From an uncultured Alphaproteobacteria bacterium (GTDB taxonomy: Bacteria > Pseudomonadota > Alphaproteobacteria > CAAGCB01 > CAG-977), in the NCBI GenBank assembly GCA_937912005.1, contig CALDOX010000001.1, positions 85,978 to 149,977 on the forward strand: DNA of 64,000 nt, in the 5' to 3' direction. How positions within the stretch are numbered: position 1 is the stretch's first letter; the number at the start of each line of letters is the position of its first letter. The notes below the pieces were generated by a model. It saw nothing but the letters and a program-made list of their open reading frames with translations. It searched no databases and had not been told where the DNA came from. Below are positions 5,082-35,611 of the stretch, in pieces. The translations under genes and the position numbers were made by a program.

Positions 5082-6334
5082 ACGTTTTTATCGCACATAA
5101 AACGTTTGATCTGGGCGTTGATAAAATTTCTCAGCCATTCCAGATCTTCTTTGGACAATCCGCGCCCGATATGAGTCGTTTGCCCGTCTGCGCCGATAAC
5201 AAGCGTATATTTTGAATCATAGCTGTTATGGACAACATAGATATATTCCAACTGTTCCGGTTTAATCAAAAAGCCGATTGACGGAAAGAAAAGCCATTTT
5301 GATTTGATGCGGATTCCCTGAGAAGAAACTATAATTCTTTTGCGTCTGAAAAAAAGAGCCAGCGGCACGGCAATAAACAATATCAATCCTGCGAACAATA
5401 AAGGCAAATATGATAACGGAAGTCTGAAAACAAAACTGAAAAAGACGATTGCAAAAAAGGTTGAAAAGCACAATATTCCGGAAAAAACAGAAAAAGCGCT
5501 GTCACGAATTTGCGGATCAATTTGGCAGTTTTCCGAATCTTCTATAATTTTAAAAGACTGCGGAATTTTATAAAGATTATGGTCGGATACTTCGATTTTC
5601 CCTTCTGAAATTAAATCGGGCAAGGCTTTCTGGATATTCTGTAATTCAATTTCTATAATACCGTCCGCCGTATTAAAAATAGCCGGCATTTCAAGCTGTC
5701 TTACCAATTCTTCCCATTTTTGAGAAATGTTTTCGCCATTTTTGGTAATGTAAAGCGGAATGGTTTTTGTTTCGTTGGGATGTTGTAAATCAATGATATG
5801 CTGCGTAAAAGAAGTTAGCCCCAGAACGTTAACGACGCGCGTACGATAACGCACGCCGATATATTCGTTCAGAGAATCGGCCATTCTTTTACTGTGTTCA
5901 AACGGTTTTTGGATAACAACCGCGGCAAACTTGTGACCGATAAAAAAATCACGGCCGTAAGAAAGCAGCATTAATCGGGTTACAATTAAAAAAAGTCCTA
6001 ATGCAACGAACAGCCAGGCAGCCGAAAAAGAACTGGCGACGTTGGAAGAGTCCGAAGATTCTATTTTGGAAAACAAGGAATTGTCAACCGTACCGAAATC
6101 GCCCAAAAAGCCCAATGCGATCAGAATGATTCCCAACAGAATACCAAGATAAATGTTTCGTTTGGATACACGATCTTTTGCCTGAGTCGGACGGCGGGAA
6201 ACATCAAATTCCAAAAAAGACGACAGCGGGCGCAATCGTCTGGTTTCAATGGCTTCTTCATTATCAGACAGGCTTTCCAGCTCGTCTAAATTTGTGTTTT
6301 CCAGTAATTCGTCCTGAACCATTCCGTTCCTCAA
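5078..6334 (-). CDS. Hypothetical 4-TM membrane protein, 418 aa, in a low-GC stretch
   Basis: Long ORF, AT-rich. Two pairs of hydrophobic helices separated by a domain of about 180 aa. No recognisable motifs. Confidence 0.5.
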
Positions 6335-6369
6335 AACAATGTTTTTTTACATTTATGACAAATTCGGCT

Positions 6370-6386
6370 TTGCTCTGCAAGAGCAA
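6370..6386. promoter_or_regulatory. Perfect inverted repeat TTGCTCT-GCA-AGAGCAA in a divergent promoter region, next to a TATAAAT-like element. Candidate operator.
   Basis: Read directly from the sequence. It lies between the divergent membrane-protein gene and the GGDEF gene. Confidence 0.3.
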
Positions 6387-6436
6387 TATACTATAAATAG
6401 AAGAGGAAAAAAATATTTTTTCGTAACGGATACTTT

Positions 6437-13085: not shown

Positions 13086-14392
13086 GCTTTTTTCTCCTTT
13101 TTTCTTAATCGAGCCGCGTAAAATCCGTCGCAGCCGCCGCTGGTTTCATAAAAGAAGGGAAGAATCAGCAGATCTCCGTCTTTTGTGATCATTTCTTTCG
13201 GAACCTCGGAAGGTTCCAAGGGAATTCGTTCAACCAATCCGGATCGGACAGCTTTATCAATAAGTCCGCGCCCTTCTTCAGGCAAAATCGAACAAACGCA
13301 GTAAACCATTTCCGCGTCATCCGTCATCATTTGGACGGCCGTTTCCAATAATTGCTTTTGAGTTATTTGCAGTCTGGAAATATCTTGAAGCGTGCGATGC
13401 CACACGACATCAGGATGACGGCGCAAAGTTCCGGTTGCCGAACATGGGGCGTCCAATAAAACAATGTCGAATTTTTCATTTTTGTTCCATTCGCGCATAT
13501 CCGTGCAGATTGTTTTGGCGGAAAAATGAAGACGGTCGAGATTTTCTTTCAATCGTTTGATTCTGTTTTCTGAAATGTCGATAGCGGTAACTTCGGCTCC
13601 GGCTAAAATCATTTGAGCCGTTTTTCCGCCTGGCGCAGCGCAAATATCAGCCGCTTTTTTGCCTTTTAAAGAATGAAACAGCCGCGCGGGCACAGCGGCG
13701 GATAAATCCTGTATCCACCAAGCTCCCTCTTCATATCCGGGAAGTTGGGGAACGGAAGCTTGTTTTTCCCTTCTCAGAGAGCCTGTCGGCATTAAAATCG
13801 CTTCCAATCGATCAGACCATATTTCCGAATCGGCTTTTATGCTGAAATCCAAAGGCGCTTCCCGTAATCCGGTATTCGCTATTTTTTCGGCATTCTGCTG
13901 TCCGTATTCCTTAACCCATTTTTCAAACAGCCATGTGGGAATGTTAAGTCTTGCCGTATTCTGTTTTTCAGCGATTTTTTTTCCTTCTTTGGCAATCCTG
14001 CGCAGGACGGCATTGGCTAATCCCGAAAATCCGCTGTATTTTCTGCTGTTTTTAATCAGGGAAACGCCCGTTGAAACGGCTGCATGTGCCGGAGTATCCA
14101 AAAAAACAAGCTGTGCTGCACTGATTCTGAGAACGTCAAAAACGTAAGCGGTTTTTTCCGGCAGGGGTTTTTTCAGAAATCGGAAAAGAATATCGTCAAT
14201 CTGTCCCAACCGACGCAATAAAGTCGTAACCAAAAGACGGACAAATGTCCGATCTCTGTTTTCTAAAGGTTCCTTTTTTTCCTGATAATTCATACAGGCC
14301 GCATATTCTTCTTCCAACCCTTTGCCATGTCTGAAAACGGCGTCAAAAATTCCGACAGCTAAATGACGCGTCAGTAAATCAGGATTGTTCAT
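13082..14392 (-). CDS. rsmB: 16S rRNA (cytosine967-C5)-methyltransferase RsmB/Sun
   Basis: NusB-like N-terminus, AdoMet motif DICAAPGGKT and catalytic DAPCSATG. Start placed at the MNNPDLL methionine; the ORF track extends to 14431 over a poly-K run. Confidence 0.85.
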   Translation of the reverse strand: MNNPDLLTRHLAVGIFDAVFRHGKGLEEEYAACMNYQEKKEPLENRDRTFVRLLVTTLLRRLGQIDDILFRFLKKPLPEKTAYVFDVLRISAAQLVFLDTPAHAAVSTGVSLIKNSRKYSGFSGLANAVLRRIAKEGKKIAEKQNTARLNIPTWLFEKWVKEYGQQNAEKIANTGLREAPLDFSIKADSEIWSDRLEAILMPTGSLRREKQASVPQLPGYEEGAWWIQDLSAAVPARLFHSLKGKKAADICAAPGGKTAQMILAGAEVTAIDISENRIKRLKENLDRLHFSAKTICTDMREWNKNEKFDIVLLDAPCSATGTLRRHPDVVWHRTLQDISRLQITQKQLLETAVQMMTDDAEMVYCVCSILPEEGRGLIDKAVRSGLVERIPLEPSEVPKEMITKDGDLLILPFFYETSGGCDGFYAARLRKKEKKA

Positions 14393-15530
14393 CGTTCTGT
14401 TTTCCTTTTTTTTCTTCCTTTTTTTTCTCATAAGTTCCTTTTAAAAAGGAAACAGCCGAAACAGTTTCCGTAATGCCTGTCTGTGCGGTTTCTTTCGCGC
14501 CTTTAACCAGATCTATAATGCCCGTTTTGTTGTCAGAAATCATAATATTCAGATACATTTTGAGGAACAACAGTACGGTCAAAAGGATCATTTGAAACTG
14601 TAAGTCACTGATAATTAAGATAAAAATCGTTATATCTGTTAAAAGATTATAACGAAGAACCACACGGATGACTGTTGCTTTATATGGCGTTCTGTTCATT
14701 AAATTTTCGAAAAAGAACAAAGGCTCTTTTTGTCTTTTGAGCAAGTTGGAGAAAAAGCGAAAAAGAACAACAACAAGTTCAAAGATAATATATCCGATCA
14801 GCAAAAAACTCATTCCCCAATTTTTTGTAGGAAGTGCAAAAAAAGCGAATCCCGTCAACAACAGACAAAAAATATTCCGTACGGCATTTTGTATCGGCAA
14901 TTTATAATGGAGAACGCAATAAAACGGGGTCAGCATCAGCATGATAGGAAACAACACGCCGATAACCTGCAATAAAGAAACGGGAGAGTAGCTCAAAAAG
15001 AAAAGTATCGGCAATACCGCGAATCCCATATGCAGAGATTGAATGACGACAATTCCTTCAAACCGGTCGGCCAATATGCAGAAAAACTTGTAACAGATAA
15101 ACCATCCTAATCCGGTCAGGGCTTGGACGGCTTCCGGAGGCAAAGAAGTTTTGAATGGCAGACTGTCTTTCGGCAGTATAAAAACGAATCCCAGAATGCC
15201 GGCCAATTCTAAAAGAGAGCTTAAAACGGTTCCGCCTTTTAATTTATTTAAAAGACCGGATATAATGAACAGGAGAACTAATCCTAAGAAATATAAAAAT
15301 TTTATTTCATAAAACCAAGTTTTGTCTTCTGAAAAGCAAAACAAAGCGCCATAGCCGATTAAAAGGCTGATCGCTTGAATGAGGTAGGCGTATTTTAAAG
15401 TTGGAACGACGTGTTCGTTATAAATATGTTCATTTAATCGGCTTTGATAAAACAAAAAATAGCCATATAACGCGATAATGTTGAAAAACAGCAGGCATGC
15501 TGTAAAAATAAGATAAAAGGTGATTGTCAT
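14379..15530 (-). CDS. Hypothetical polytopic membrane protein, about 10 TM, AT-rich
   Basis: Highly hydrophobic 383-aa ORF. Overlaps the rsmB start. Confidence 0.5.
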   Translation of the reverse strand: MTITFYLIFTACLLFFNIIALYGYFLFYQSRLNEHIYNEHVVPTLKYAYLIQAISLLIGYGALFCFSEDKTWFYEIKFLYFLGLVLLFIISGLLNKLKGGTVLSSLLELAGILGFVFILPKDSLPFKTSLPPEAVQALTGLGWFICYKFFCILADRFEGIVVIQSLHMGFAVLPILFFLSYSPVSLLQVIGVLFPIMLMLTPFYCVLHYKLPIQNAVRNIFCLLLTGFAFFALPTKNWGMSFLLIGYIIFELVVVLFRFFSNLLKRQKEPLFFFENLMNRTPYKATVIRVVLRYNLLTDITIFILIISDLQFQMILLTVLLFLKMYLNIMISDNKTGIIDLVKGAKETAQTGITETVSAVSFLKGTYEKKKEEKKGKQNDEQS

Positions 15531-15576
15531 TGATGACTCCGTTTTTCAGATTATCCGCAAAAAAATTAACAAACCT

Positions 15577-16080
15577 CTATAATCTGCAAAGATAACACAG
15601 TATACAGCAATTTTCTTTTGTTTTTGAAATATATTCCGTCCTTTCCGAAAAAAAAGAAAATCCGGCTTTTTCGAAGGCGCTTAAAGAAGCACGGTTTCCT
15701 TTGCGAATATCGGCGGTCAAAAGGGTGACGTTTTTCGCTTTCATATAATGTTGTAAAGAAATCAGAGCTTCCGTTCCTATTCCTTCCCCGCGCCGATGCG
15801 GAGAAATATTGATCATCACTTCAATTGCGGTTTGATCGGGATATTCGGAAAGAGAAGTCGGTTCAAACCGGATAAAACCGACCGGTTCGCCGCCTTCAAC
15901 AACAAAAACGGGATCAAACGGCGGATTTTCGAAGTAACCCGCATTATATTCCAGCCAGAACGAATCCCAGCTTTTAGGCAAAGCAATATAAGAAGAAGCG
16001 ATTGTTGCCGGATCATTGCGCCACGCAAAAACAATGCGGGCGTCTTCTTTTTTATTTTGGCACGGCTGCAGAGTAATCAT
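15577..16080 (-). CDS. GNAT family N-acetyltransferase
   Basis: Conserved acetyl-CoA binding core (RRGEGIGTEAL). Confidence 0.7.
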   Translation of the reverse strand: MITLQPCQNKKEDARIVFAWRNDPATIASSYIALPKSWDSFWLEYNAGYFENPPFDPVFVVEGGEPVGFIRFEPTSLSEYPDQTAIEVMINISPHRRGEGIGTEALISLQHYMKAKNVTLLTADIRKGNRASLSAFEKAGFSFFSERTEYISKTKENCCILCYLCRL

Positions 16081-25755: not shown

Positions 25756-28284
25756 ATGGCGGATTCTGTGATAACGGCGGTGCTGGGGCCCACAAACACG
25801 GGCAAGACGTATCTGGCGATCGAAAAGATGATGACGCATAAAACCGGCATGATCGGTTTCCCTTTGCGTCTGCTTGCCCGCGAGAATTACGATAAAATCG
25901 TCCGCCTTAAAGGGGCAAACAATGTTGCTCTGATTACGGGGGAGGAAAAAATCCTGCCCGAAAATCCGTCTTACTATGTCTGCACGGTCGAAGCGATGCC
26001 TTTGGAACAGCCGGTCGATTTTTTGGCTGTTGACGAAATTCAGATGGCGGCGGACGTTGAACGCGGCCATATCTTTACGGACAGACTGCTTTACGCCAGA
26101 GGGATGAGGGAAACGATGTTTCTCGGCGCGGAAACGATCAAGCCGCTGTTAAAGCAGCTGATTCCCGAAACCGTCATCGAAACGCGGCCGCGGTTTTCCA
26201 AACTGACCTATACGGGAATCAAGAAAATCACCCGCCTGCCGGCAAGGTCGGCGATCATCGGCTTTTCCGTGCAGGACGTTTACGCTCTGGCGGAACTGAT
26301 CCGGCGGCAAAAGGGCGGCGCGGCGGTCGTGATGGGGGCTTTGAGTCCGCGCACCCGAAACGCGCAGGTCGATATGTTCCAGTCGGGCGAAGTCGATTAT
26401 CTGGTCGCGACGGATGCGATCGGTATGGGATTGAATATGGACATCGGGCACGTTTGTTTTACGTCTTTAAGAAAATTCGACGGACGGAGGATGCGGGCGT
26501 TGTCGGCGGCTGAACTGGCGCAAATCGCGGGACGCGCGGGGCGGTATATGACGGACGGCACGTTCGGCGCGGCGGCGGAAGCCTCGGCGATGACGCAGGA
26601 CGTGATTGACAGAATCGAAGAACACCGTTTTGAAAACCTGCCGAATCTGTTCTGGCGCAATCACGATCTGAAAACGACGTCTTTGGACGCCCTTGTTTAC
26701 AGTCTGAACGTCCGACCGACGCAAGCGGGGTTGATTACGGCCAGAAAAGCCGAAGACCAGCAGGTTTTGGAAGTGCTGATGCAGGATTCGGGCATTGAAA
26801 AACTGGCGAATCACTCTTCCCGCGTAAAACTTTTATGGGACATCTGCCAGATTCCGGACTTTCGCAAAGTTTCCCCGCAGGCACACGCGAAACTGGCGGG
26901 ACAGCTGTTCCGTATGATACTGGACAAGGGGAAAATCGATCAGGATTGGTTTGCTAAACAAGTCAAAACGCTGGATAATACGAACGGCGATATCGATGTT
27001 GTTACGGGACGTATTGCAGGAATCAGAATTTGGACGTATATTGCCCAAAGAAAAGAATGGATCGACCGGTCGTCGCACTGGCGGGACATAACTAGGGCTG
27101 TCGAGGACAGGCTTTCGGACGCTTTGCACTTAAAGCTTTCCCAACGGTTCGTGGATAAACGCACATCTGTTTTGGTTAAGGGTATGAAAACACAAGTGGA
27201 TTTAGAAGCTCAAATCGGTGAAGACGGCACGGTTGCCGTCGAAGGACAAACAATCGGAAAACTGGAAGGGCTGCGCTTTATGCCTGATACCGGCAACGGC
27301 AGGTTTGCCGACCGCGTTCTGATAAATGCGGCGGACAAGGCTTTGCAGGCGGAATTTCAAACCAGAATCGCGGAAATCCTCAATCCCGAAAAGGACGATC
27401 TGACGTTGGAAAACGATGCGCGTATTTTGTGGAAAGGGCAGGCTTTGGGCAAAGTCGTCAAAGGGCGCGACATTCTGCACCCCGCTGTTTCCTTAACCGT
27501 TCAGGAAAATATTGACCAGTCTTATATTGATCAGCTGAAAACCCGCTTGAACGGTTGGTTGGAAGTTTACCTGAACAATAAAATCATGCCGTTGTTTAAA
27601 GCGTTGCGAACGATCGACGAGGAAGGCGCGTCCGGTTCCGTGCGCGGCATTCTGTACCAAGCGGCCGACCAGTTGGGAACGATCAGGCGCGAAAAAGTGC
27701 TGGAACTCGTCAAAGGCTTGAATGAAGCGGATAAAAAGATTCTGGCGAAAACCGGCGTGCGTATGGGGTATGAATATATTTTCTTCCCGATGCTGTTGAA
27801 ACCGGCGGCTCAGCGCGTTTGCGCCATTTTATGGAAGATCTGGAACGAAAAAACGCAATATGCGACCGGTTTTGCGATTGACGGTAAAATGTCCTTTGCC
27901 GTTGAAAAAGGAATCCCTTGGGCTTTATATCTGGTGCAAGGCTATGTTTTGGCCGGAACGCGGGCAATTCGCGTCGATGTAATGGAGAGATTTACATCAA
28001 AACTGCGCGAAATCACACGTCAGGACAAAGGAAAACCGCAAGTCCTGCCGTTGGAGCTGTTGTCGATTGCCGGACTGAAACGCGATGAAGCGGCGGAAGT
28101 ATTCGGTTTCTTGGGCTTTAATGTAACGAAGGAAACGCAAACCGTTACGGTCGGCGAAGAAACGAAGGAAACGGAAACGCTGATGATTCAGCCAAAATTC
28201 AAAAAGCACAAAAAAGCGCCGAAAGAAGAAAAGATTGACGAAACGTCTCCTTTTGCGGCGTTGGCTTCTTTGAAGAAGAAATAA
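25756..28284 (+). CDS. Suv3-like superfamily 2 RNA/DNA helicase with a long C-terminal extension
   Basis: Walker A GPTNTGKTY and a DEIQ box (Walker B), then a helicase C domain. The Suv3-type GPTNSGKT signature is conserved in alphaproteobacterial helicase-related proteins. Confidence 0.6.
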   Translation: MADSVITAVLGPTNTGKTYLAIEKMMTHKTGMIGFPLRLLARENYDKIVRLKGANNVALITGEEKILPENPSYYVCTVEAMPLEQPVDFLAVDEIQMAADVERGHIFTDRLLYARGMRETMFLGAETIKPLLKQLIPETVIETRPRFSKLTYTGIKKITRLPARSAIIGFSVQDVYALAELIRRQKGGAAVVMGALSPRTRNAQVDMFQSGEVDYLVATDAIGMGLNMDIGHVCFTSLRKFDGRRMRALSAAELAQIAGRAGRYMTDGTFGAAAEASAMTQDVIDRIEEHRFENLPNLFWRNHDLKTTSLDALVYSLNVRPTQAGLITARKAEDQQVLEVLMQDSGIEKLANHSSRVKLLWDICQIPDFRKVSPQAHAKLAGQLFRMILDKGKIDQDWFAKQVKTLDNTNGDIDVVTGRIAGIRIWTYIAQRKEWIDRSSHWRDITRAVEDRLSDALHLKLSQRFVDKRTSVLVKGMKTQVDLEAQIGEDGTVAVEGQTIGKLEGLRFMPDTGNGRFADRVLINAADKALQAEFQTRIAEILNPEKDDLTLENDARILWKGQALGKVVKGRDILHPAVSLTVQENIDQSYIDQLKTRLNGWLEVYLNNKIMPLFKALRTIDEEGASGSVRGILYQAADQLGTIRREKVLELVKGLNEADKKILAKTGVRMGYEYIFFPMLLKPAAQRVCAILWKIWNEKTQYATGFAIDGKMSFAVEKGIPWALYLVQGYVLAGTRAIRVDVMERFTSKLREITRQDKGKPQVLPLELLSIAGLKRDEAAEVFGFLGFNVTKETQTVTVGEETKETETLMIQPKFKKHKKAPKEEKIDETSPFAALASLKKK

Positions 28285-28658
28285 TGGGCGCGTCCCAAAG
28301 AATCGACAAATGGCTGTATTTCACGCGCTTTGCGAAAACGCGGATGGTGGCGCAGGAATTGATCGAAGGGGGACACGTTGCCGTCAACGATGAAAAAGTC
28401 CTGAAATGCAGTCGGGATATCAAAATCGGCGATGAATTGGAAATTTTGCGCGGTACGATGAAGTTTTTCGTCCGCGTAACGGGCTTTGTCGAAAAACGGG
28501 TCGGCGCGCCGGTCGCGAAAACGCTTTACGAGCAGACGAAAGAGCCGGAAAATTTGGCTCCGCCGCCGAAAAAAGCGTTCGAATACCGCGCCGCCGGCTC
28601 CGGCCGCCCGACCAAACGCGACAGACGGGCGTTAAACAGATTGAAGGGGAAGTTTTAA
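28284..28658 (+). CDS. hslR: S4-domain RNA-binding protein, ribosome-associated heat shock protein Hsp15-like
   Basis: S4 fold signature RIDKWLYFTRFAKTR...GHVAVN. TAATG overlap with the helicase gene. Confidence 0.7.
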   Translation: MGASQRIDKWLYFTRFAKTRMVAQELIEGGHVAVNDEKVLKCSRDIKIGDELEILRGTMKFFVRVTGFVEKRVGAPVAKTLYEQTKEPENLAPPPKKAFEYRAAGSGRPTKRDRRALNRLKGKF

Positions 28659-28662
28659 CCTT

Positions 28663-31248
28663 TCAAACTTTTTGCTCTTTGAGCCATAAAAGTAAGTTTT
28701 TTAACACAAGCTTTTGCTGTGCCGTAATGAATGATTTCATAAAGGAAAAATCAATTTCATTTGAAGCTGTAACAGGAAGATGCACTGTTAGTTTTGCCGC
28801 TGTTTTTCGATTAAATTTATTAGCGTAATCAAAACGTCCTGCCGCACTTTTTTTAAACAATGACACAAAATATAATAAAGATTTTTCACTCCATTTATCT
28901 GAATGAAGCGGATATAAACCTTGAACATGCGGATATCCTATAAAATCAGTTGGTTGATAAAAAATACCGTCTGATGTTGTTGTATCGCTGTATGTGATTA
29001 TATTCCCTTTTTCTGTCGGAGAAAGACTACTATAACCAATAACACCGTTGTTTAAACTTGAATTGGAAATGACGGGTGTTTTTCCGTACTCTTTAAATAA
29101 GTAAAAATTAGTTAGTTTATATGCTTTCGTAGGATGTATATTAAATAAATCGCCTATTTTAAATTCTTTGAATAATGGAGATTCTTTCTTAAAATCACTA
29201 TGTGCATCTTTATTATTTGATAGCTTTTCTGAAGTAGTTGTTTTAAGAAAGCTTTCAAATAATCCTTCTTCCTTTAAAATTGTTGATACTTTCCACGATA
29301 AATAATCCGCTACCGTTTTTCTGAAATCCGCTTCGGTTGGGATGGTATCGATTTTTTTATGTTGCGCATATGTCCAATCATTTCCGTTTAAGGTGATTGT
29401 GTCTTTAATGACACAGTTGTCAAAATAGTGCGTTGTTTGTTTACGGTTCAAAACGATATCGACGATTTCCCGATAACGGCCGCGGGCGTTGCCGGTATCT
29501 TTCAAATTAACGTCTGCGCTTGCTTTTTTCTTGTTTTGCCTTGTATAGCCGTCGTTTGAAAAATCAATAAAAGTGACCAAACCGTCAACATTATGCGGTT
29601 TTCCGACGTCAAAAACATAAATTGCCGTCTGAACCCCCGCTTTGCCGCAGAAAATATCGCTCATATGAATTGACGCGATAAGAGAGTTGTTTTTCAGAAT
29701 CTCTTTTGTGTATGGCAGACCGTTTCCGCTTCCCGCATTTTCCTGTATCAGAATCGCCGCTCGTCCGTGTGTCATTTTTCCTAACGCCTTTTCGACGAAG
29801 ACAAAACCTTTCCCGTCAGCGGAATAGGGAGGATTTAACAGGAATACATCGGCGGGAAACGGTTCGTCTTTTTTAGTCCCCTGTTCATATTTGCCGTTAA
29901 AATCTTTCAGAGAATCTTTGTGCAGAATATTGCACGAACCGTCTCCCATCAGAATCATGTTTAAAACCGCTAGCATATAAATATCGGCACGCACCTCAAC
30001 ACCCAGAAGTTGGAAATATTTAATGCACGCGATTTTTTCCTGTAGTTTTTGAGGACTGTTGATACTTTTTTCGGCATCGCCGATCATTTGCTTCATCGCT
30101 GAAATCAGAAAGCCTGCACTTCCCGTCGCATAATTCCAGACATAACTGTCTTTGTTGACTTGACACAATTTAGCCATCAATTCGCAAACATAACGCGGCG
30201 TTAAAACAACATCGTTTTTCTCGCCGTCCGGAATATCAACCCATTCGTTTAAAACGTTAAAAAGTCTGCCCGTAAAATCCAGATGACGCGCCGAAGTGAA
30301 AATCGGCATAATATCGTTTTTAATAACGGTATAGACTGTTTTGATCGCACTTTCCCCGTTTATCGGCATATAAATTCGGGAATAAATAAAAACCTGCGAT
30401 AAATCGGAAACAATCAAATCCTTTTTCTCTTTAGGAAGATTTTTTTCACTTAAAAAATCGGCAATTTTATTGATGACAAGCTTGCCATCATTGGAATAAT
30501 TTCCCGTTTCGCCTTTTAAATCCGTTATTTCCAACGGCGAAACCCGATTCTCAACCCCCAATGCAGCCATAATCAATCCCGCAACCAGTTGGACACGAGA
30601 ACCGACGGAGATTTTTAATTCATCATGCATTTTTTGGTTTAACGCCTTTAATTTGATTTCGATCTGATTTTCGAAATCTTTGGCACGGCTTTCTTTTTCC
30701 TCGTCCGTTAAAGAAAGCACATCAACTTTTTTGATAAAATTTTCAAAATTGTTTTGATTCAAAAAGCTCAAGCCACTGTAATCATCTACTTTTTTAGGAA
30801 TACAAAAGTTATCTGCGGAAACATAATAAACGCCTAATTCCGTTTTAATCCCGCCGGCATCTTCATATCCGTTAAAACCAATCGCGATGACTTCTTTATA
30901 GGATTGCGTGTGTTTTATAATCGCGTCTGCATAATGTAGGGCTCCATTGACAGCGTACTTTTGAATGTTTGAAGATTTGGAATTGTCGATTTCGCCTGTT
31001 TCGGTTGTTTTAATCAAATATCCTTGTTTCCCCTTAACTTCAATCATAACGGGAATTTTTCGATTTGTTTTTGTCGTCAAAAACAACTTGATATCAGGAT
31101 AATTATTTCCTTTTCCCCCGTTTTTGGACGGAGCCTTTTTTAAAGCCTCATCAATTTCGGGATTGATACTTTCTGTTTTTGTATAGGTTTTGCAGTCTTT
31201 CAGTTGCGCTTTGGCGATGTCTTCGATTTTTTCTTCAATGCTTTTCAT
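28663..31248 (-). CDS. Single-polypeptide Type IIG-like restriction-modification enzyme: N-terminal PD-(D/E)xK nuclease-like region, gamma-class N6-adenine DNA methyltransferase, C-terminal HsdS-like target recognition domain
   Basis: YPDIKLF...MIEVKGK (PD...ExK) near the N-terminus. AdoMet motif WNYATGSAGFL followed about 80 aa later by the catalytic NPPY. C-terminal FKIGDLF...GKTPVISNS... resembles an HsdS TRD. 861 aa and very AT-rich. Confidence 0.55.
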   Translation of the reverse strand: MKSIEEKIEDIAKAQLKDCKTYTKTESINPEIDEALKKAPSKNGGKGNNYPDIKLFLTTKTNRKIPVMIEVKGKQGYLIKTTETGEIDNSKSSNIQKYAVNGALHYADAIIKHTQSYKEVIAIGFNGYEDAGGIKTELGVYYVSADNFCIPKKVDDYSGLSFLNQNNFENFIKKVDVLSLTDEEKESRAKDFENQIEIKLKALNQKMHDELKISVGSRVQLVAGLIMAALGVENRVSPLEITDLKGETGNYSNDGKLVINKIADFLSEKNLPKEKKDLIVSDLSQVFIYSRIYMPINGESAIKTVYTVIKNDIMPIFTSARHLDFTGRLFNVLNEWVDIPDGEKNDVVLTPRYVCELMAKLCQVNKDSYVWNYATGSAGFLISAMKQMIGDAEKSINSPQKLQEKIACIKYFQLLGVEVRADIYMLAVLNMILMGDGSCNILHKDSLKDFNGKYEQGTKKDEPFPADVFLLNPPYSADGKGFVFVEKALGKMTHGRAAILIQENAGSGNGLPYTKEILKNNSLIASIHMSDIFCGKAGVQTAIYVFDVGKPHNVDGLVTFIDFSNDGYTRQNKKKASADVNLKDTGNARGRYREIVDIVLNRKQTTHYFDNCVIKDTITLNGNDWTYAQHKKIDTIPTEADFRKTVADYLSWKVSTILKEEGLFESFLKTTTSEKLSNNKDAHSDFKKESPLFKEFKIGDLFNIHPTKAYKLTNFYLFKEYGKTPVISNSSLNNGVIGYSSLSPTEKGNIITYSDTTTSDGIFYQPTDFIGYPHVQGLYPLHSDKWSEKSLLYFVSLFKKSAAGRFDYANKFNRKTAAKLTVHLPVTASNEIDFSFMKSFITAQQKLVLKNLLLWLKEQKV

Positions 31249-31260
31249 CAGTTTCTTTTC

Positions 31261-31500
31261 CCGGACTAAAAAAGTCGCCTGATGAAGGCGACCGGAAGTT
31301 GGAAACTACTCTAATGAAATAGTGCGACATATTGACATATACCAAAAACGCTGCGGATTAACTAGTATACCGCAGTGTTTTGCTTATGCTTATTCTGTCG
31401 CCTTCCGGTCGTTAAACCAGAAGGCGTGCAAAATTTTCGTCTTCGCACAAGACGCATCAGAGGGGTTTCCACACCCCGGAACATTCATCAGATGTTCCGA
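31261..31500. other. Hairpin-dense intergenic region with at least six perfect stem-loops in 240 bp. Candidate structured ncRNA or stacked terminators.
   Basis: Stems GTCGCC/GGCGAC, CTGCGG/CCGCAG, CGCCTTC/GAAGGCG, CGTCTT/AAGACG, GGGG/CCCC and GGAACAT/ATGTTCC, read directly from the sequence. Confidence 0.4.
31267..31292 (-). terminator. Rho-independent terminator on the minus strand, 19 nt upstream of the Type IIG start codon
   Basis: Minus-strand reading: GTCGCC-TTCATCA-GGCGAC followed by TTTTTT. Confidence 0.5.
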
Positions 31501-31547
31501 AAGAAAGTATAAAGAGAACTTGTTATTTAGTGGTTAATGGAAAAATT

Positions 31548-31853
31548 TTAACTTTTCGCGTTGTCTAAAAAGATAAGGTCTTTTTCGATCAGTTTGTAAA
31601 AGTCGGCATCAATCTTATGAAAATCGCAGAAATTAACGATATACGGCAAGCGGCTGTCATCGCATTTTTGTTTGATTTCTTCCAATGTTTCAAAGGGCAT
31701 AGGCTCTTTGCCGCAAATCAGGATATCCAGATCGGACGTTTTTTCAAATCCGCCTTTGACGCGGGAACCGTAGCAGGCAAATCGAAACTCCCGCTGATAC
31801 GGTTCAAAAATGTTTTTTAGAATATTCAGTTCATCCGAAGTGATGCCGATCAT
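31548..31853 (-). CDS. Minimal nucleotidyltransferase (MNT) antitoxin-like protein
   Basis: GSRVKGG...SDLDILI nucleotidyltransferase motif. ATGA overlap with the upstream HEPN gene. The ORF track extends further 5' in a frame overlapping HEPN. Confidence 0.65.
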   Translation of the reverse strand: MIGITSDELNILKNIFEPYQREFRFACYGSRVKGGFEKTSDLDILICGKEPMPFETLEEIKQKCDDSRLPYIVNFCDFHKIDADFYKLIEKDLIFLDNAKS

Positions 31854-32266
31854 TGACGACCTGCGGCTTTTTTGAAGGACGCAACCAAGATTTCTGCATC
31901 GGCGATAAATCGGGGAATGACGGTTAAAACGGAACGCGATTTTTCGATATTGTATTCGTGTGCCGTTTCGTTGCGTTTGATATAATACTCTTTCCAATTT
32001 TCCCAGTTGCCGATCATATTATAGCTGCTCATCAGCCGGAAAATGTCGTTGACGGTCAATTCCTCGTCCGACTTTCCGTATGTCAGTTTTAAGTATTTTT
32101 TCATCAGCTTCCAAGCCGTTTCCAAAGTATATTCGTATCTTTGAATACAGGAATCAGCGATAATGGAGGTCAGCGTTTCGTCTCTGTTATTTTGGTAGAC
32201 TGTCCACGCTTTGCGCAAAGTCTGCAAAAATTTTTCCAAAGCGTCCGTTTTAAGTTCTGCCGTCAT
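31850..32266 (-). CDS. HEPN-domain protein (HI0074-family nucleotidyltransferase substrate-binding protein), putative toxin
   Basis: 138 aa with a conserved RYEYTLETAWK block typical of the HI0074 family. Paired with the MNT gene. Confidence 0.65.
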   Translation of the reverse strand: MTAELKTDALEKFLQTLRKAWTVYQNNRDETLTSIIADSCIQRYEYTLETAWKLMKKYLKLTYGKSDEELTVNDIFRLMSSYNMIGNWENWKEYYIKRNETAHEYNIEKSRSVLTVIPRFIADAEILVASFKKAAGRQ

Positions 32267-32295
32267 AAGAAGCCCTCAATATTTTTAATGCAGAT

Positions 32296-32324
32296 ATATT
32301 AGTGTATCATTGTCTTTTTGCCAA
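32296..32324 (-). promoter_or_regulatory. Sigma70-type promoter for the HEPN-MNT operon (TTGGCA-N17-TAATAT)
   Basis: Minus-strand -35 TTGGCA, 17-nt spacer, -10 TAATAT, about 30 nt upstream of the HEPN ATG. Confidence 0.45.
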
Positions 32325-32345
32325 GAAGACATAAGCACGTAAATT

Positions 32346-32684
32346 TTATTTTTTTTCTTTCAAATTTTTTAACGCTTCAAAATTATTTGAAATAACAGTG
32401 CCGACCGTAGGACATTTCTCCAACATCGGGCAAGCGCCGCAGGTTTCAACGCTTTTTTTCATCGCGCATTGGCGAATGGCGCACAGGCTTTCGCAATAAA
32501 CCGTTTTGACGCCGTTCGCGCGGCAGCCTTGGCAGTTAATTTGTTCGGGCAGAATGGGAACGTTGTTCAGTTCCGACCATAATTTGGCCGTTTTTTCCCG
32601 TAGAGCTTGGTCGTTGTTGACTGTTGCCAGATATGCGTCGCATTTTTCGCAGTCCAATCCGCAATAAGCGATCATTTTTTCCAT
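32346..32684 (-). CDS. Cys-rich DUF3795-family protein
   Basis: CGLDCEKC...CQGC...CESLC...CGAC cysteine pattern. Start taken at MEKMIAYCG with an AAAGGA RBS. Confidence 0.5.
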   Translation of the reverse strand: MEKMIAYCGLDCEKCDAYLATVNNDQALREKTAKLWSELNNVPILPEQINCQGCRANGVKTVYCESLCAIRQCAMKKSVETCGACPMLEKCPTVGTVISNNFEALKNLKEKK

Positions 32685-32843
32685 TATTAAATCCTTTTGA
32701 GCTTTTTCTTTGAAAAATAAATTCTTAAAGGCTGAATGTAAATCCGATAAATACAAAATTTAACCTTTTGGCGATTTGATGTTGAAAATCCGCGAAAAGT
32801 GTTTATATTTTCTAAGTCATACAAATTTTTGAGGAGATTAAAT

Positions 32844-33071
32844 ATGCCTTCAGTCGTTAATGATTCTTGTGTCAAGTGTCTGACCTGTGTCGAAGCTTGT
32901 CCGGTTGGCGCGTTCGTCGAATTGGAAACGCAAGTTGTTGTTAATCCCGAAACCTGCATTGATTGCGGCGTGTGCATTTCCGAATGCCCGCAGGGTGCAA
33001 TCGCTTCCGATGGCGACGCCGATGAAAAATGGGTGAAGTTCAACGCCGAAAAAGCGGCTGCTGCCGGCTAA
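32844..33071 (+). CDS. 2x[4Fe-4S] ferredoxin
   Basis: Two CxxCxxCxxxCP motifs (CVKCLTCVEACP, CIDCGVCISECP). GAGGAG RBS before the ATG at 32844. Confidence 0.8.
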   Translation: MPSVVNDSCVKCLTCVEACPVGAFVELETQVVVNPETCIDCGVCISECPQGAIASDGDADEKWVKFNAEKAAAAG

Positions 33072-33090
33072 GCCGTTTTCGAAACCATTA

Positions 33091-33125
33091 AAAAGCCCTT
33101 CAAATGAAGGGCTTTTCTATTTTAT
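33091..33125. terminator. Rho-independent terminator after the ferredoxin gene, bidirectional with the small minus-strand ORF
   Basis: GCCCTTCA-AA-TGAAGGGC hairpin followed by TTTTCTATTTT. Confidence 0.6.
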
Positions 33126-33129
33126 GTGC

Positions 33130-33291
33130 TTACTCAAACTTTGTTTCTTTAATTTTTCTATCCGTCGCAAAGTCGGATGTACGTTGTACCGTACTGTTAA
33201 AACTTTCCAAAAACGAATCAAAGAAACCGTTGCTATACAGGAAATAACCGGCTCCGCCGAGTAAAACAATTAAAACAACAAAGGCTTTCAT
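33130..33291 (-). CDS. Small hydrophobic peptide, 53 aa (MKAFVVLIVLLGGAGYFLY...). Not in the ORF track.
   Basis: GGAGAATGATT-ATG RBS and start. Single TM helix. Ends at the shared terminator. Confidence 0.35.
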   Translation of the reverse strand: MKAFVVLIVLLGGAGYFLYSNGFFDSFLESFNSTVQRTSDFATDRKIKETKFE

Positions 33292-33606
33292 AATCATTCT
33301 CCAAAAACAAAACGTTCTTTTTTAATATTTTTTTTCGCTGAGGCTGTCAACACGAATAAAAATCAAAAAAAATATACTTTGAAGTAGGTGTGGTATAAGA
33401 ACAATCGTTGGCGTCAAGGACAAGGCCTGCAGCGGCTGCGCAGACGATACATAAAAACGGTCGCAGCCTGTGAGTTTCTTTATAAAGGAATTAAAAAAAC
33501 GCCCTCTGAATTTCCGGAGAGCGTTTCTGTATTGAAAAAATAAAAATTCAAAGGTAAAAACTTTAAAAACGGTTTTTATTTTTAAAAACGGGAAAAGGGC
33601 TGATTG

Positions 33607-34695
33607 ATGAACTATATCGGAAGCAAAAAAACGTTGATTCCGTTTTTAAAAGAAACAATTTTGAAAATAATTTCGCCGGATTCCCATGTTTTTTGCGATT
33701 TGTTTGCCGGTACGGGAACGGTCGGAAGCTGTTTTAAAAGAGAAGGTTTCAAAGTTATTTCCAACGATTTGCAGTATTATTCTTTCGTTTTAAACAGAAA
33801 CTATGTCGGCAATCATAAGGCGCTGGAATTTAACGGACTGACGGCAGAAATAGAACAGGCGGCAAAAAACGTATCGAACGATCAGATGAGGTTGTTCGGC
33901 GATAAATCGAAAAAAGAGTATGTAATTGAATATCTGAACAATTTAAAGGGCGAGGAAGGTTTCGTATATTCAAATTATACGTTGTCCGGCACAAGAGGGC
34001 AGCAATTTGAAAGAAATTATTATTCCGAAGACAATGCGAAAAAGTGCGATGCCGTTCGGATGAAAATCGAAGAATGGAAAGAAGAAAAGCGAATTACGGA
34101 AGACGAATATTTCTTTCTTTTGGCGTCTTTGCTGGAAGCGATAGACAGTGTGGCGAATACGGCTTCCGTTTACGGCGCTTTTTTGAAAAAGCTGAAAAAC
34201 TCAGCTGCCAGAGCGATGAAAATTGTTCCGGCCGATTTTTCGATTACGGATGAAGAACATTGTGTTTATAACAAAGACGCCAACGAGCTGATCAGGGAAA
34301 TTTCATGCGATATTTTGTATCTTGATCCGCCGTATAACGAGCGTCAGTATTCTGCAAACTATCATATTTTGGAAACGATCGCCAAATATGACGATCCCGT
34401 TATCAAAGGAAAAACAGGTCTGCGCGATTATAAAGACCAAAAATCAAAATACTGCTCAAAAGCCGATGTAAAAAGGGCTTTTGAGGAGCTGATTCAAAAC
34501 GCCAAAGCAAAATATATTTTTTTAAGCTATAACAACGAAGGTTTGTTAAGCATTGATGACGTGAAGGAAATTTTTTCCAGAAAAGGAACTTACGGAACAG
34601 CAACGCAGGCGTATAACCGCTTTAAAGCTGATTCATCCAGAAAATACAGTGCGGATAAAACGGTGGAATATTTACATTACTGCATTTGTAAATAA
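33607..34695 (+). CDS. D12-class (Dam-like, alpha-group) N6-adenine DNA methyltransferase
   Basis: Motif I DLFAGTGTVG precedes the catalytic DPPY. MMNYIGSKK N-terminus typical of Dam-family MTases. 363 aa. Confidence 0.8.
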   Translation: MNYIGSKKTLIPFLKETILKIISPDSHVFCDLFAGTGTVGSCFKREGFKVISNDLQYYSFVLNRNYVGNHKALEFNGLTAEIEQAAKNVSNDQMRLFGDKSKKEYVIEYLNNLKGEEGFVYSNYTLSGTRGQQFERNYYSEDNAKKCDAVRMKIEEWKEEKRITEDEYFFLLASLLEAIDSVANTASVYGAFLKKLKNSAARAMKIVPADFSITDEEHCVYNKDANELIREISCDILYLDPPYNERQYSANYHILETIAKYDDPVIKGKTGLRDYKDQKSKYCSKADVKRAFEELIQNAKAKYIFLSYNNEGLLSIDDVKEIFSRKGTYGTATQAYNRFKADSSRKYSADKTVEYLHYCICK

Positions 34696-34711
34696 TGTTC
34701 CGGACAGCGTT

Positions 34712-35611
34712 TTATATTTCCATTCCCGAAGTGCGGGCAGCGCCTGCCGCGCCGTGTTGCGCGACTTTTTTAGCCGCTTCATAGGCATCCAGCTGGCGGG
34801 TCATTGCTTCGGGAAACCAGGAAGCGGCGGCGGAAACTTTTTCCGAGGATGTGTTCGGCAGATTCGGACGTTTATATCCGAAACCTTCGGAGCTGACCTG
34901 TTCGCGGATAGCTTCCGGATTGATAGCGGGTTTTTGTGCTAAGGTTGTATTTGTTTCATTAATCGCTTTTGTTTTTGCCTGCTGTTTCATTTCTTCGATC
35001 CGAAGCTGTTTAGCCTGATCCGCTGCGCTGGCGGTCAAAGGCTGAGCCACACCGAATTTTGTTTGGTTGTTTCTGAAACGGGCAGCGTTGTCCATAGAGA
35101 AAACTTTTGCGTTTCCCGGACCTTTCAATGTTTTTGTTTCTTGAGCGGCTTCGCGTGCTTTGGCTTTTTCTTCGGACATATTATAAGGAGATTCTTTGCC
35201 GAAAAGCCTATTTGTTTTTTTGGAAAAAGTCGTGCGTTCCAGCTGTTCATTCAAACGTGTTCCCGGTTTTGAAGCGGTGTCCGCGCTGACAACAAAAGGC
35301 GTCAAATCAACAACGTCCGCCAAAGCGGAAGGTATTTCCTGCACGTTTTGTTCCTGCGCGGCTAAAGAAACGGGTGGGGTAATAGGAGAGTGAACGGCGG
35401 CGATTTTCTCGGGTTCGGAAACGGGCGTTTCTTTTAATTGCTGCGCAAAAGACGGACGATTTTCCGAACGCGGCGTTTCCGCTTTGATGTTTTGGGCGGT
35501 TTCTGATTGAAAAGTAATGCCGTCTTGCCAAACAGACAGATCAACAGTAAAATCCATATATAACATAAGCGCCTCCATTTTTTCTTTTTTAAGATGCAAT
35601 GTTCGTGCCAT
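34712..35611 (-). CDS. Hypothetical low-complexity (A/Q/K/T-rich) protein
   Basis: 299-aa ORF. Divergent from the regulator gene. No motif recognised. Confidence 0.4.
   Translation of the reverse strand: MARTLHLKKEKMEALMLYMDFTVDLSVWQDGITFQSETAQNIKAETPRSENRPSFAQQLKETPVSEPEKIAAVHSPITPPVSLAAQEQNVQEIPSALADVVDLTPFVVSADTASKPGTRLNEQLERTTFSKKTNRLFGKESPYNMSEEKAKAREAAQETKTLKGPGNAKVFSMDNAARFRNNQTKFGVAQPLTASAADQAKQLRIEEMKQQAKTKAINETNTTLAQKPAINPEAIREQVSSEGFGYKRPNLPNTSSEKVSAAASWFPEAMTRQLDAYEAAKKVAQHGAAGAARTSGMEI

Follow-up and report, generated by a model that had tools for sequence, protein, structure and literature searches.

The 6 kb between positions 28659 and 34711 of the DNA analysed here (the window, 64,000 nucleotides of contig CALDOX010000001.1 from an uncultured alphaproteobacterium) very probably represent an adjacent pair of accessory-gene hotspots set in a conserved helicase-hslR-fdx-p299 block of a rumen and gut lineage of Alphaproteobacteria. 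The two slots are occupied by a single-chain Type IIG/IIB-like restriction-modification (RM) enzyme, a HepT/MntA toxin-antitoxin (TA) pair, a DUF3795 protein, a 53-aa membrane peptide and a D12-class DNA methyltransferase that appears to be an orphan. An earlier note on this DNA had described the whole region as a 6-kb defence island inserted between core genes. That the DNA is acquired, variable, mostly defensive and without mobility genes has held up. That it is a single insert has not: the ferredoxin gene in its interior, fdx, is a core gene that lies directly after hslR, on the same strand, in 70 of the 74 alphaproteobacterial loci that carry hslR, with a gap mostly below 125 bp.

Two variable slots around a core ferredoxin gene

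Species-representative genomes were scanned with the flanking helicase, which yielded 80 loci. Those nearest to the window come from rumen and gut alphaproteobacterial metagenome-assembled genomes (MAGs), with a best helicase match of 96% amino acid identity (sheep rumen RGIG6957), and the set reaches as far as Reyranella, Afipia and Methylocella. The 18 nearer related species loci are referred to as L001 to L018. Four contigs from the same or a very close species were reached via homologues: L165 is collinear with the window and 98.7% identical to it over 14 kb, L166 and L167 are 98.2% identical to it from 31265 rightwards, and L168 is 95-96% identical. When the relatives were compared, a check that the earlier note had suggested, the content between hslR and p299 was found to differ among related species and among conspecific strains alike.

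DNA homology with all relatives stops within a few bases of 28658, returns at 32754-33094, is lost again and is back from about 34737. The helicase-hslR pair, fdx and the p299-RR-p660 run are collinear across L001 to L018, and the gap between hslR and fdx measures 74-90 bp in L010, L013, L014, L016, L017 and L018. With a coding GC content of 0.52 against 0.39 in its surroundings, fdx resembles the flanking core genes; its product has FdxA_Protbact as its best NCBIfam match (4.5e-20, under the cut-off). We conclude that fdx is a vertically inherited core gene rather than island cargo, and that positions 32754-33116, comprising fdx, its promoter and its terminator, are ancestral core DNA. Because fdx is core and homology resumes there, the region consists of two variable slots instead of one insert. 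Slot A lies between hslR and fdx, and slot B between fdx and p299. The latter is empty in L001, L002, L003, L008, L013, L015 and L017, in which 46-160 bp with a single bidirectional terminator take its place. The slots hold at least five independently distributed cassettes. The features of the region and its edges are listed here in window coordinates.

25756..28284, plus strand: Suv3-like helicase, core left-flank gene, collinear and 60-96% identical (amino acids) in L001 to L018
28284..28658, plus strand: hslR-like S4-domain (Hsp15-type) protein, core, left edge of slot A; Pfam S4 1.1e-11
28654..28663, unstranded: left copy of the 10-bp direct repeat TTTAACCTTT, spanning the hslR stop codon region
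28659-32753: slot A (hslR to fdx), all cassettes on the minus strand (IIG, HepT/MntA, DUF3795)
28663..31248, minus strand: single-chain Type IIG/IIB-like restriction-modification-specificity (R-M-S) enzyme, 861 aa; PADLOC REase_MTase_IIG 6.6e-185, residues 4-660
31262..31497, minus strand: 236-nt structured non-coding leader, between the MNT stop and the IIG start
31548..31853, minus strand: MntA-type minimal nucleotidyltransferase (antitoxin), 101 aa; Pfam Polbeta, NTP_transf_2
31850..32266, minus strand: HepT-type HEPN protein (toxin, HI0074 family), 138 aa; Pfam NTase_sub_bind (PF08780) 4.4e-24
32346..32684, minus strand: DUF3795 Cys-rich protein; Pfam DUF3795 7e-19
32754..32843, plus strand: ancestral hslR-fdx intergenic region with the fdx promoter, aligning from the hslR stop codon onward in the empty-site loci L010 and L018
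32759-32768, plus strand: right copy of TTTAACCTTT, within a vestigial hslR terminus including the stop codon, before the fdx promoter
32844..33071, plus strand: 2x[4Fe-4S] ferredoxin in the fdxA position, 75 aa, core; 67-91% amino acid identity in L001 to L018
about 33079-34711, unstranded: slot B (fdx to p299), holding the 53-aa peptide gene and the D12 methyltransferase
33091..33116, both strands: strong bidirectional terminator between the convergent fdx and peptide genes, 11-bp stem followed by a T run
33130..33291, minus strand: 53-aa small membrane protein, with a GGAGA ribosome-binding site 6 nt upstream
33494..33531, unstranded: remnant of the ancestral bidirectional fdx/p299 terminator, aligning with the fdx-p299 spacer terminator of L001, L002 and L003
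33607..34695, plus strand: D12-class N6-adenine DNA methyltransferase, orphan by its neighbourhood; Pfam MethyltransfD12 3.5e-44, PADLOC MTase_II 4.2e-113
34712..35611, minus strand: p299, conserved hypothetical protein of 299 aa, core, right edge of slot B; 40-80% amino acid identity, syntenic in relatives

A promoter-like site (32782-32809) precedes fdx, and the terminator at 33091-33116 is part of the DNA that L183 and L184 share with the window at their peptide locus. Among the edge genes, the helicase was matched by Pfam DEXQc_Suv3 and Helicase_C on the identical gene of L165, and the hslR-like protein scored 4.5e-14 against NCBIfam Hsp15, under the curated cut-off. The p299 protein has no Pfam and no NCBIfam match. 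It evolves fast, being 40-80% identical where the helicase is 66-96% identical.

Both outer junctions are as tight as previously described. The hslR-like stop codon (28656-28658, plus strand) and the IIG stop codon (28663-28665, minus strand) are separated by 4 bp, CCTT, and the D12 methyltransferase stop codon (34693-34695, plus strand) and the p299 stop codon (34712-34714, minus strand) by 16 bp. Neither of these two outer spacers holds a terminator-like hairpin, again as the earlier note had it; strong terminators occur inside the region, at 33091-33116 and at 31273-31293 (minus strand). Its claim that the region is AT-richer than its flanks was borne out by windowed GC, which is 0.388 for 28659-34711 compared with 0.452 for the whole window, 0.498 for the left 6-kb flank and 0.461 for the right. 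No other 6-kb window is as low, the lowest elsewhere being 0.414. Gene by gene, coding GC is 0.52 for the helicase, 0.54 for hslR and 0.52 for fdx, and 0.36-0.39 for the IIG, peptide and D12 genes. With all open reading frames (ORFs) of 28659-34711 accounted for, no tRNA, integrase, transposase or flanking inverted repeats were found there, consistent with the reported lack of an integrase or transposase, and Rfam at gathering thresholds gave no match across the entire window. The gene identities proposed earlier (Type IIG enzyme, TA pair, DUF3795 protein, ferredoxin, methyltransferase) were upheld by Pfam, PADLOC and NCBIfam profiles.

Elsewhere in the window GC is also lowered (0.37-0.41) at 14000-16000 and 5000-7000. 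These stretches encode a 383-aa ORF with no Pfam match, a GNAT acetyltransferase, a weakly DUF2207-like membrane protein and a PAS-GGDEF protein, and no mobility genes were found among the proteins scanned from them.

Turnover and content of the slots

At least nine different cargo sets are present in the 18 species loci, including the following.

L001: TA pair and CAT-family gene
L002: CAT-family gene and DUF3795
L003: BcgI-like RM and TA pair
L005, L011: ubiquitin-autotransporter
L006, L015: IIG in slot A
L009: 1023-aa secreted protein
L010, L012, L018: IIG in slot B

Glycosyltransferases are also among the non-defence cargo. The IIG cassette, from 28659 to about 31264, is common to the slot A loci L006 and L015 and to the slot B loci L010, L012 and L018, and the HepT/MntA cassette is common to L001, L003, L007 and L168. 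We regard the slots as general-purpose accessory hotspots that are biased towards defence.

Turnover extends to conspecific contigs, among which, at 95-99% identity, three alternative defence cargos stand beside hslR. To the left of 31265, L166 and L167 carry a BcgI-sized Type IIG enzyme (PADLOC PDLC03602, in two ORFs), two half-S genes and a 213-aa gene, and L168 replaces 28674-31539 with PDC-S14 (DUF4357), AbiD and three small genes. The RM cassette of L166 is 87-94% identical to that of L003, a different species. Over the final 216 bp of hslR, the identity of L166 is 92.1% with the window (17 mismatches) and 94.5-94.9% with L001 and L003, a pattern that would be expected if the cassette had come with adjoining hslR sequence.

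Other observations on the cargo were made in passing. The BcgI-like IIG gene of L003 (14596-16505, minus strand) is split into overlapping ORFs of 399 and 342 aa, and that of L166 (8778-10692, plus strand) is split elsewhere, into 480 and 177 aa, with the S function on the two half-S genes; the splits could be pseudogenes, sequencing errors or phase variation. The ubiquitin-autotransporters in the hslR-fdx slot of related gut MAGs (L005, 5186-6577, and L011, 13914-15215, both minus strand) combine a signal peptide, a eukaryote-like ubiquitin (PF00240, 1e-25) and an autotransporter beta-barrel (PF03797, 1e-34), an architecture suggestive of ubiquitin that gut Alphaproteobacteria secrete or display on their surface. 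In three related rumen MAGs the same slot is taken by a gene of the chloramphenicol acetyltransferase (CAT) family, recognized by its profile in L001 (13729-14352, minus strand; PF00302, 9e-17) and by ORF likeness in L002 (12910-13533, minus strand) and L008 (12883-13554, minus strand), so the slot carries resistance-type cargo too.

The RM enzyme of slot A consists of a nuclease, a gamma-class N6-adenine methyltransferase and one target-recognition domain (TRD), all in frame. Pfam recognizes N6_Mtase, Methylase_S (residues 693-842) and, weakly, VRR_NUC, and the PD...EVK nuclease motif and the ATGSAG and NPPY methylase motifs are intact in the translation. Systems of the BcgI type (Type IIB/IIG) pair an RM subunit with a two-TRD S subunit, and HaeIV, AloI and CjeI are single-chain relatives. 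With BcgI-like systems the window enzyme shares the N-terminal PD-(D/E)XK nuclease, the gamma-class N6A methyltransferase with NPPY and Type I-like TRDs. Its own relatives also show the two-gene BcgI-type layout, having an RM subunit of 667-676 aa and, as a gene of its own, a two-TRD S subunit that starts at a TTG overlapping the stop codon of RM (TTGA). Unlike the usual form of a 676-aa protein with a 382-aa S subunit, the window enzyme joins RM to a single TRD through a linker of about 30 aa, for 861 aa in total, and the independent assembly L165 encodes the identical 861-aa protein. Fusion of this kind is rare in the set of approximately 8000 homologues, P0124 and P0160 being its only representatives among the best 120 matches listed. 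By its domain layout, then, the window enzyme is a rare fused, single-TRD variant of a BcgI-like two-gene family. Family membership predicts that it would methylate and cut at a bipartite, probably symmetric site, and that it would work as a dimer in which each chain contributes one TRD. Homologues in gut bacteria such as Clostridium fermenticellae are 68-76% identical, in other taxa the gene pair lies beside AbiEii and recombinase genes, and no sequence relatives of the protein were found in the PDB.

The hepT and mntA genes overlap by 4 bp. Class I HepT/MntA systems (HEPN/MNT, type VII TA) are defined by the RX4HXY and GSX10DXD motifs (Yao et al. 2020, PMC7641770). In the window, RX4HXY is present as RNETAHEY in the HepT-type protein and GSX10DXD as GSRVKGGFEKTSDLD in the MntA-type protein. 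The HepT-type protein also scores above the cut-off of TIGR01987 HI0074 (1.7e-16), and has as PDB relatives 1jog (HI0074, 8.5e-9) and 8xdj (a HEPN toxin). What the pair shares with class I HepT/MntA and with HI0073/HI0074 is a PF08780 HEPN protein with RX4HXY beside a PF01909-type MNT protein with GSX10DXD, and on these motifs the pair falls within the sequence definition of class I. It differs from the class I HepT/MntA compared in its order, HEPN first and then MNT, and the MNT protein reaches 20.8 bits against a cut-off of 60 for the NCBIfam MntA model. As in the family, MntA would AMPylate the HepT RNase and thereby neutralize it.

The earlier note had considered the DUF3795 gene, the ferredoxin and the 53-aa peptide as a trio, the best candidate for an undescribed accessory system, framed by the TA pair on one side and a second methyltransferase on the other. 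The co-occurrence check gave three different histories. DUF3795 is found in only one of the 18 related loci, L002, and has 3313 homologues, those in gut bacteria including Lachnospiraceae being 75-85% identical. In Lachnospiraceae the gene belongs to a cobalamin operon, with cobD on one side of it and a flavin reductase gene on the other; in another lineage it adjoins Toprim, NikA-like and relaxase genes and a 2608-aa methylase-helicase, a conjugative-element-like context. These contexts are metabolic or conjugative-element cargo and not defence, and the homologue identities point to the gene being horizontally acquired cargo from the gut Firmicutes gene pool. Neither such a ferredoxin nor the peptide occurs in the Firmicutes contexts examined. 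Of the 12 cysteines in the DUF3795 protein, 10 are invariant among 26 aligned homologues and one more is nearly so, and they include a CX3CX2C motif. The DUF3795 profile has no sequence relatives in the PDB, a fold search was precluded by a poor AlphaFold2 model (mean predicted local distance difference test score, pLDDT, of 50), and in the literature the name DUF3795 was met once, in passing, in a single paper. Exact-sequence look-ups of the DUF3795 and D12 proteins returned nothing on record, and the contexts given here were reached through homologues.

The 53-aa peptide was called as a gene in the independent assemblies L165 to L167. Its homologues were found only in related MAGs (77-98% identical), at loci with neither DUF3795 nor this ferredoxin. 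In sister species they occupy an unrelated locus beside a heavy-metal ATPase and an FMN reductase, and DNA homology of the peptide cassette is limited to 33079-33350. The ferredoxin gene occurs without DUF3795 and the peptide in 16 of the 18 related loci. PADLOC returned nothing for either DUF3795 or the peptide. Because ferredoxin, DUF3795 and peptide each differ in distribution, the trio was rejected as a system; it is one core gene and two unrelated imports. Nor does the proposed frame persist, since the D12 gene is absent from all 80 related species loci and, among these and the conspecific contigs compared, was seen in this species alone.

The D12 protein has intact FAGTG and DPPY motifs. 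The closest known enzymes are orphan D12/Dam-class methyltransferases and the methyltransferase components of multi-methylase Type II systems; shared features are the D12 fold, the FxGxG and DPPY motifs and the lack of an adjoining nuclease gene. The protein is no orthologue of Dam, scoring 19 bits on TIGR00571, whose cut-off is 115. Its closest metagenome relative is 61% identical. Relatives usually adjoin a second methyltransferase and a putative nuclease, an HNH-like or approximately 470-aa partner, whereas the window gene stands alone, flanked to its left by the relic terminator and the 53-aa gene and to its right by core p299. A tblastn search of the window for these partners (second methyltransferase, approximately 470-aa protein, HNH-like protein) found no remnant. 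The gene neighbourhood thus indicates an orphan methyltransferase, although a distant, unrecognizable nuclease could lie elsewhere in the genome; by family, the enzyme would methylate host DNA independently of a cognate nuclease. No sequence relatives were found in the PDB. D12 relatives of 35-51% identity occur on plasmids and phages, and one viral contig matches the protein at 44%. A phage or plasmid origin was considered and rejected, the best matches being 38% (phage) and 51% (plasmid), with no source at the DNA level.

The relic terminator suggests how slot B was filled: the peptide cassette would have been inserted to the left of the old fdx/p299 terminator and the D12 gene to its right. 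The earlier note had placed a hairpin-dense, RNA-like region in this area. Folding of 33298-33603 is modest relative to shuffles (z of -2.1 and -2.5), and the stretch was rejected as an RNA gene given the weak fold, the lack of an Rfam match and its partial identity with the relic terminator; the structured element of this locus is instead at 31262-31497 on the minus strand. Separately, the 3' end of p299 contains a terminator-like hairpin at 34748-34763 (plus strand), made up of CGCGCCGTGTTGCGCG and a T run after it, which may mark the end of the D12 transcript about 50 bp beyond the D12 stop codon.

A structured leader ahead of the restriction gene

The 236-nt leader upstream of the RM gene is the only part of the locus that could surprise a specialist. 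At its 3' end is an intrinsic terminator (31293-31273, GGTCGCCTTCATCAGGCGAC followed by T6) about 20 nt ahead of the RM start codon, and in every copy the terminator stands 6-20 nt before the RM ribosome-binding site (RBS). The leader is nearly invariant (approximately 90-97%) in seven species-level loci in which the neighbouring RM genes are approximately 77% identical at the DNA level or belong to another family, as in L003, L166 and L167, where the adjacent RM gene is of a different IIG family. RNAalifold placed 84 pairs in seven helices (-92.7 kcal/mol), with 98.6% of the alignment cells paired. Compensatory pairs number 7, compared with 2.7 in shuffles (1 of 500 of which reaches 7) and 0-2 in slid controls. 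As a single sequence the minus strand folds more strongly than the plus strand (z of -7.6 against -5.7), and several invariant G-U pairs favour the minus strand as well. The loop of the first hairpin, CUGAUGAA, is complementary over 8 nt to the terminator loop and 3' side, UUCAUCAG, and the minimum-energy fold of the window copy uses the CUGAUGAA/UUCAUCAG pairing in place of the terminator. Such an alternative pairing is how a terminator/antiterminator switch would be expected to look.

One-base indels break any conserved reading frame, for which reason the leader is taken as non-coding; a small ORF (MNVPGCGNPS...) was rejected since 1-nt indels shift its frame in L012 and four other copies. 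Searches of Rfam 15 gave no match at gathering thresholds, the best sub-threshold hit having an E-value of 0.058, and a weak match to the integron-linked sRNA-Xcc1 reached 27 bits against a gathering threshold of 53. With nhmmer and a covariance model, only the known copies and fragments in L005 and L011 were recovered from all compared loci. These fragments persist where the RM gene is gone, and in L005 the 5' 86 nt of the leader lie upstream of another gene, the ubiquitin-autotransporter. No leader was seen ahead of the 74-76% identical RM genes of other taxa, an exact 31-mer had no match in viral contigs, and blastn against plasmids gave none.

The leader may be a regulatory RNA, with odds somewhat below even or at best even. 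More specifically, we tentatively propose an undescribed class of cis-regulatory RNA that would control IIG/IIB RM genes by a choice between terminator and antiterminator, so gating RM transcription, and that, being nearly invariant, might double as a portable homology arm behind which different RM cassettes could be exchanged. We consider it somewhat unlikely that the element is no regulatory RNA at all, being either a DNA recombination anchor or recently spread sequence, or else a free-standing small RNA unrelated to RM control. These readings draw on the high identity of the leader relative to its adjacent genes, as expected of recently exchanged DNA, on the RM swap of L166 and L167, which has its right-hand breakpoint at the leader, and on the restriction of the leader to this clade, RM homologues elsewhere lacking it. 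The copies are also few and vary little, which limits the covariation test; the statistics rest on seven distinct copies from a single clade. Set against this are the conserved pairs and their compensatory changes, the strand preference of the G-U pairs and the strength of the fold, the canonical terminator at a similar place before every RM RBS, the reuse of the 5' 86 nt ahead of a different gene and the internal 8-nt complementarity. A role for the leader as a recombination anchor is compatible with the RNA and the DNA-only reading alike.

With attenuators and riboswitch-like 5' untranslated regions the leader shares a structured 5' element, an intrinsic terminator just before the RBS and an alternative pairing that could disrupt that terminator; it differs from known attenuators in having no Rfam family. 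To our knowledge, control by a leader RNA is absent from the known regulatory modes of RM systems, namely C proteins, antisense RNA, methyltransferase autoregulation and phase variation. If it is a true regulatory RNA, the leader would represent a new mode of restriction-enzyme control and a handle for finding RM cassettes in this clade. A review of RM regulation covers C proteins, antisense RNAs and methyltransferase autoregulation, with no mention of riboswitches or attenuator-type leaders (PMC3874152).

Origin of the slots and comparison with known hotspots

Because there are no mobility genes and the breakpoints between strains lie at conserved internal sequences and not at repeats, we infer that double homologous recombination on the conserved flanks is what brings cassettes in, removes them and swaps one for another. 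The recombination arms would be the helicase and hslR on the left and the leader, the TA pair or fdx on the right, and cassette DNA may arrive by transformation, conjugation or transduction. Slot A itself was probably opened by one old insertion at the hslR stop codon that left a 10-bp duplication. The repeat in question, TTTAACCTTT, was spotted by eye in the alignments and then tested: the 64 kb contain three copies against 0.5 expected, and two of them, on the plus strand, lie exactly at the edges of slot A. Vestigial hslR ends are also found upstream of fdx in other filled loci, and in empty loci the same sequence is the real end of hslR. A search for long flanking direct or inverted repeats (14 bp or more) gave chance-level matches only.

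These scars also suit a different account, in which slot A is, or started out as, a site-specific element at the hslR 3' end, with TTTAACCTTT as attL/attR or a target-site duplication and an integrase or transposase that was lost or acts in trans. The exact repeat at both edges, in excess of expectation, the vestigial hslR terminus at the right copy with its counterparts in other filled loci, and the close homologues of the IIG cassette on elements with serine or tyrosine recombinases in other taxa would all fit. We nevertheless consider this account improbable. No recombinase is present in the region or beside the slot in the 18 related loci; the strain replacement breakpoints, 31265 and 31540, lie inside the array and not at the repeats; slot B has no comparable repeat; and the vestigial hslR copies have diverged between species, as expected of an old single event followed by other turnover. 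An integron-like cassette array, to which the co-stranded genes of slot A and the weak sRNA-Xcc1 match might have pointed, was rejected in view of the missing integrase and attC sites. Between the cassettes no repeated imperfect-palindrome family was found, and only 4 bp follow the last cassette. The insertion of a single 6-kb mobile defence island as a unit between hslR and p299, with the trio as a new module, is highly improbable. The AT-rich block is contiguous except for fdx and its junctions are tight, and DUF3795 and fdx are divergent genes 160 bp apart that both encode Cys-rich, potentially Fe-S proteins. However, fdx is core and adjoins hslR across Alphaproteobacteria, DUF3795 stands beside it only in the window species and L002, its Firmicutes copies lack such a ferredoxin or peptide, the peptide homologues occupy another locus, each cassette is distributed separately, and PADLOC is blank for both DUF3795 and the peptide. 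Misassembly or misbinning of foreign low-GC contigs into an alphaproteobacterial MAG can very nearly be discounted. A metagenome-derived lineage and a sharp drop in GC at gene boundaries would be its natural signs, yet identical junctions recur at 98-99% identity in the independent assemblies L165 (Logan) and L166 and L167 (ENA), which stem from different samples and pipelines, and related species show the same slots with other cargo.

Several points weigh against the reading of the locus as a pair of hotspots turned over by homologous recombination, or against parts of it. All genomes compared are MAGs or metagenome contigs, and strains were assigned by identity alone. The direct sign of recombination is limited to the 17 mismatches counted over 216 bp where one contig ends, weaker constraint could explain why identity across species is lower in the right flank than in the left, and the 10-bp direct repeat could be compatible with a site-specific or transpositional origin. 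The RM, TA and D12 activities are assumed from motifs, and a promoter search found no promoter for the leader.

The pair of hotspots has two practical lessons. A core gene can hide within an apparent island, and guilt by association with defence neighbours fails unless the distribution of each gene is checked separately. The locus also documents a miniature defence and accessory hotspot in an uncultured rumen and gut alphaproteobacterial lineage, with conspecific turnover and no mobility gene, that draws on the gut Firmicutes gene pool (IIG homologues 68-76% and DUF3795 homologues 75-85% identical).

As a kind, a hotspot flanked by core genes and without mobile elements is already known. Mobile elements are missing from many hotspots of horizontal gene transfer (HGT), whose flanking core genes recombine more than usual and for which homologous recombination on the flanks is the proposed mechanism (Oliveira et al. 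2017, PMC5635113; see also PMC10121019). Defence hotspots with no identifiable mode of mobilization include E. coli hotspot #37 (PMC10121019) and the core defence hotspots of P. aeruginosa (PMC10250203). The slots of the window share with such HGT and defence hotspots a fixed place between syntenic core genes, varying cargo, enrichment in RM, Abi and TA systems, low GC and the absence of an integrase or transposase, as well as a hint of imported flanking sequence. They differ from the described hotspots in their small size (one to five genes per slot), in being separated only by a 75-aa core ferredoxin gene, and in cassettes that abut stop codons. They further differ in their non-defence cargo, such as a CAT-family acetyltransferase, a ubiquitin-autotransporter and DUF3795, in having a conserved non-coding leader as an internal anchor, and in belonging to uncultured rumen and gut Alphaproteobacteria.

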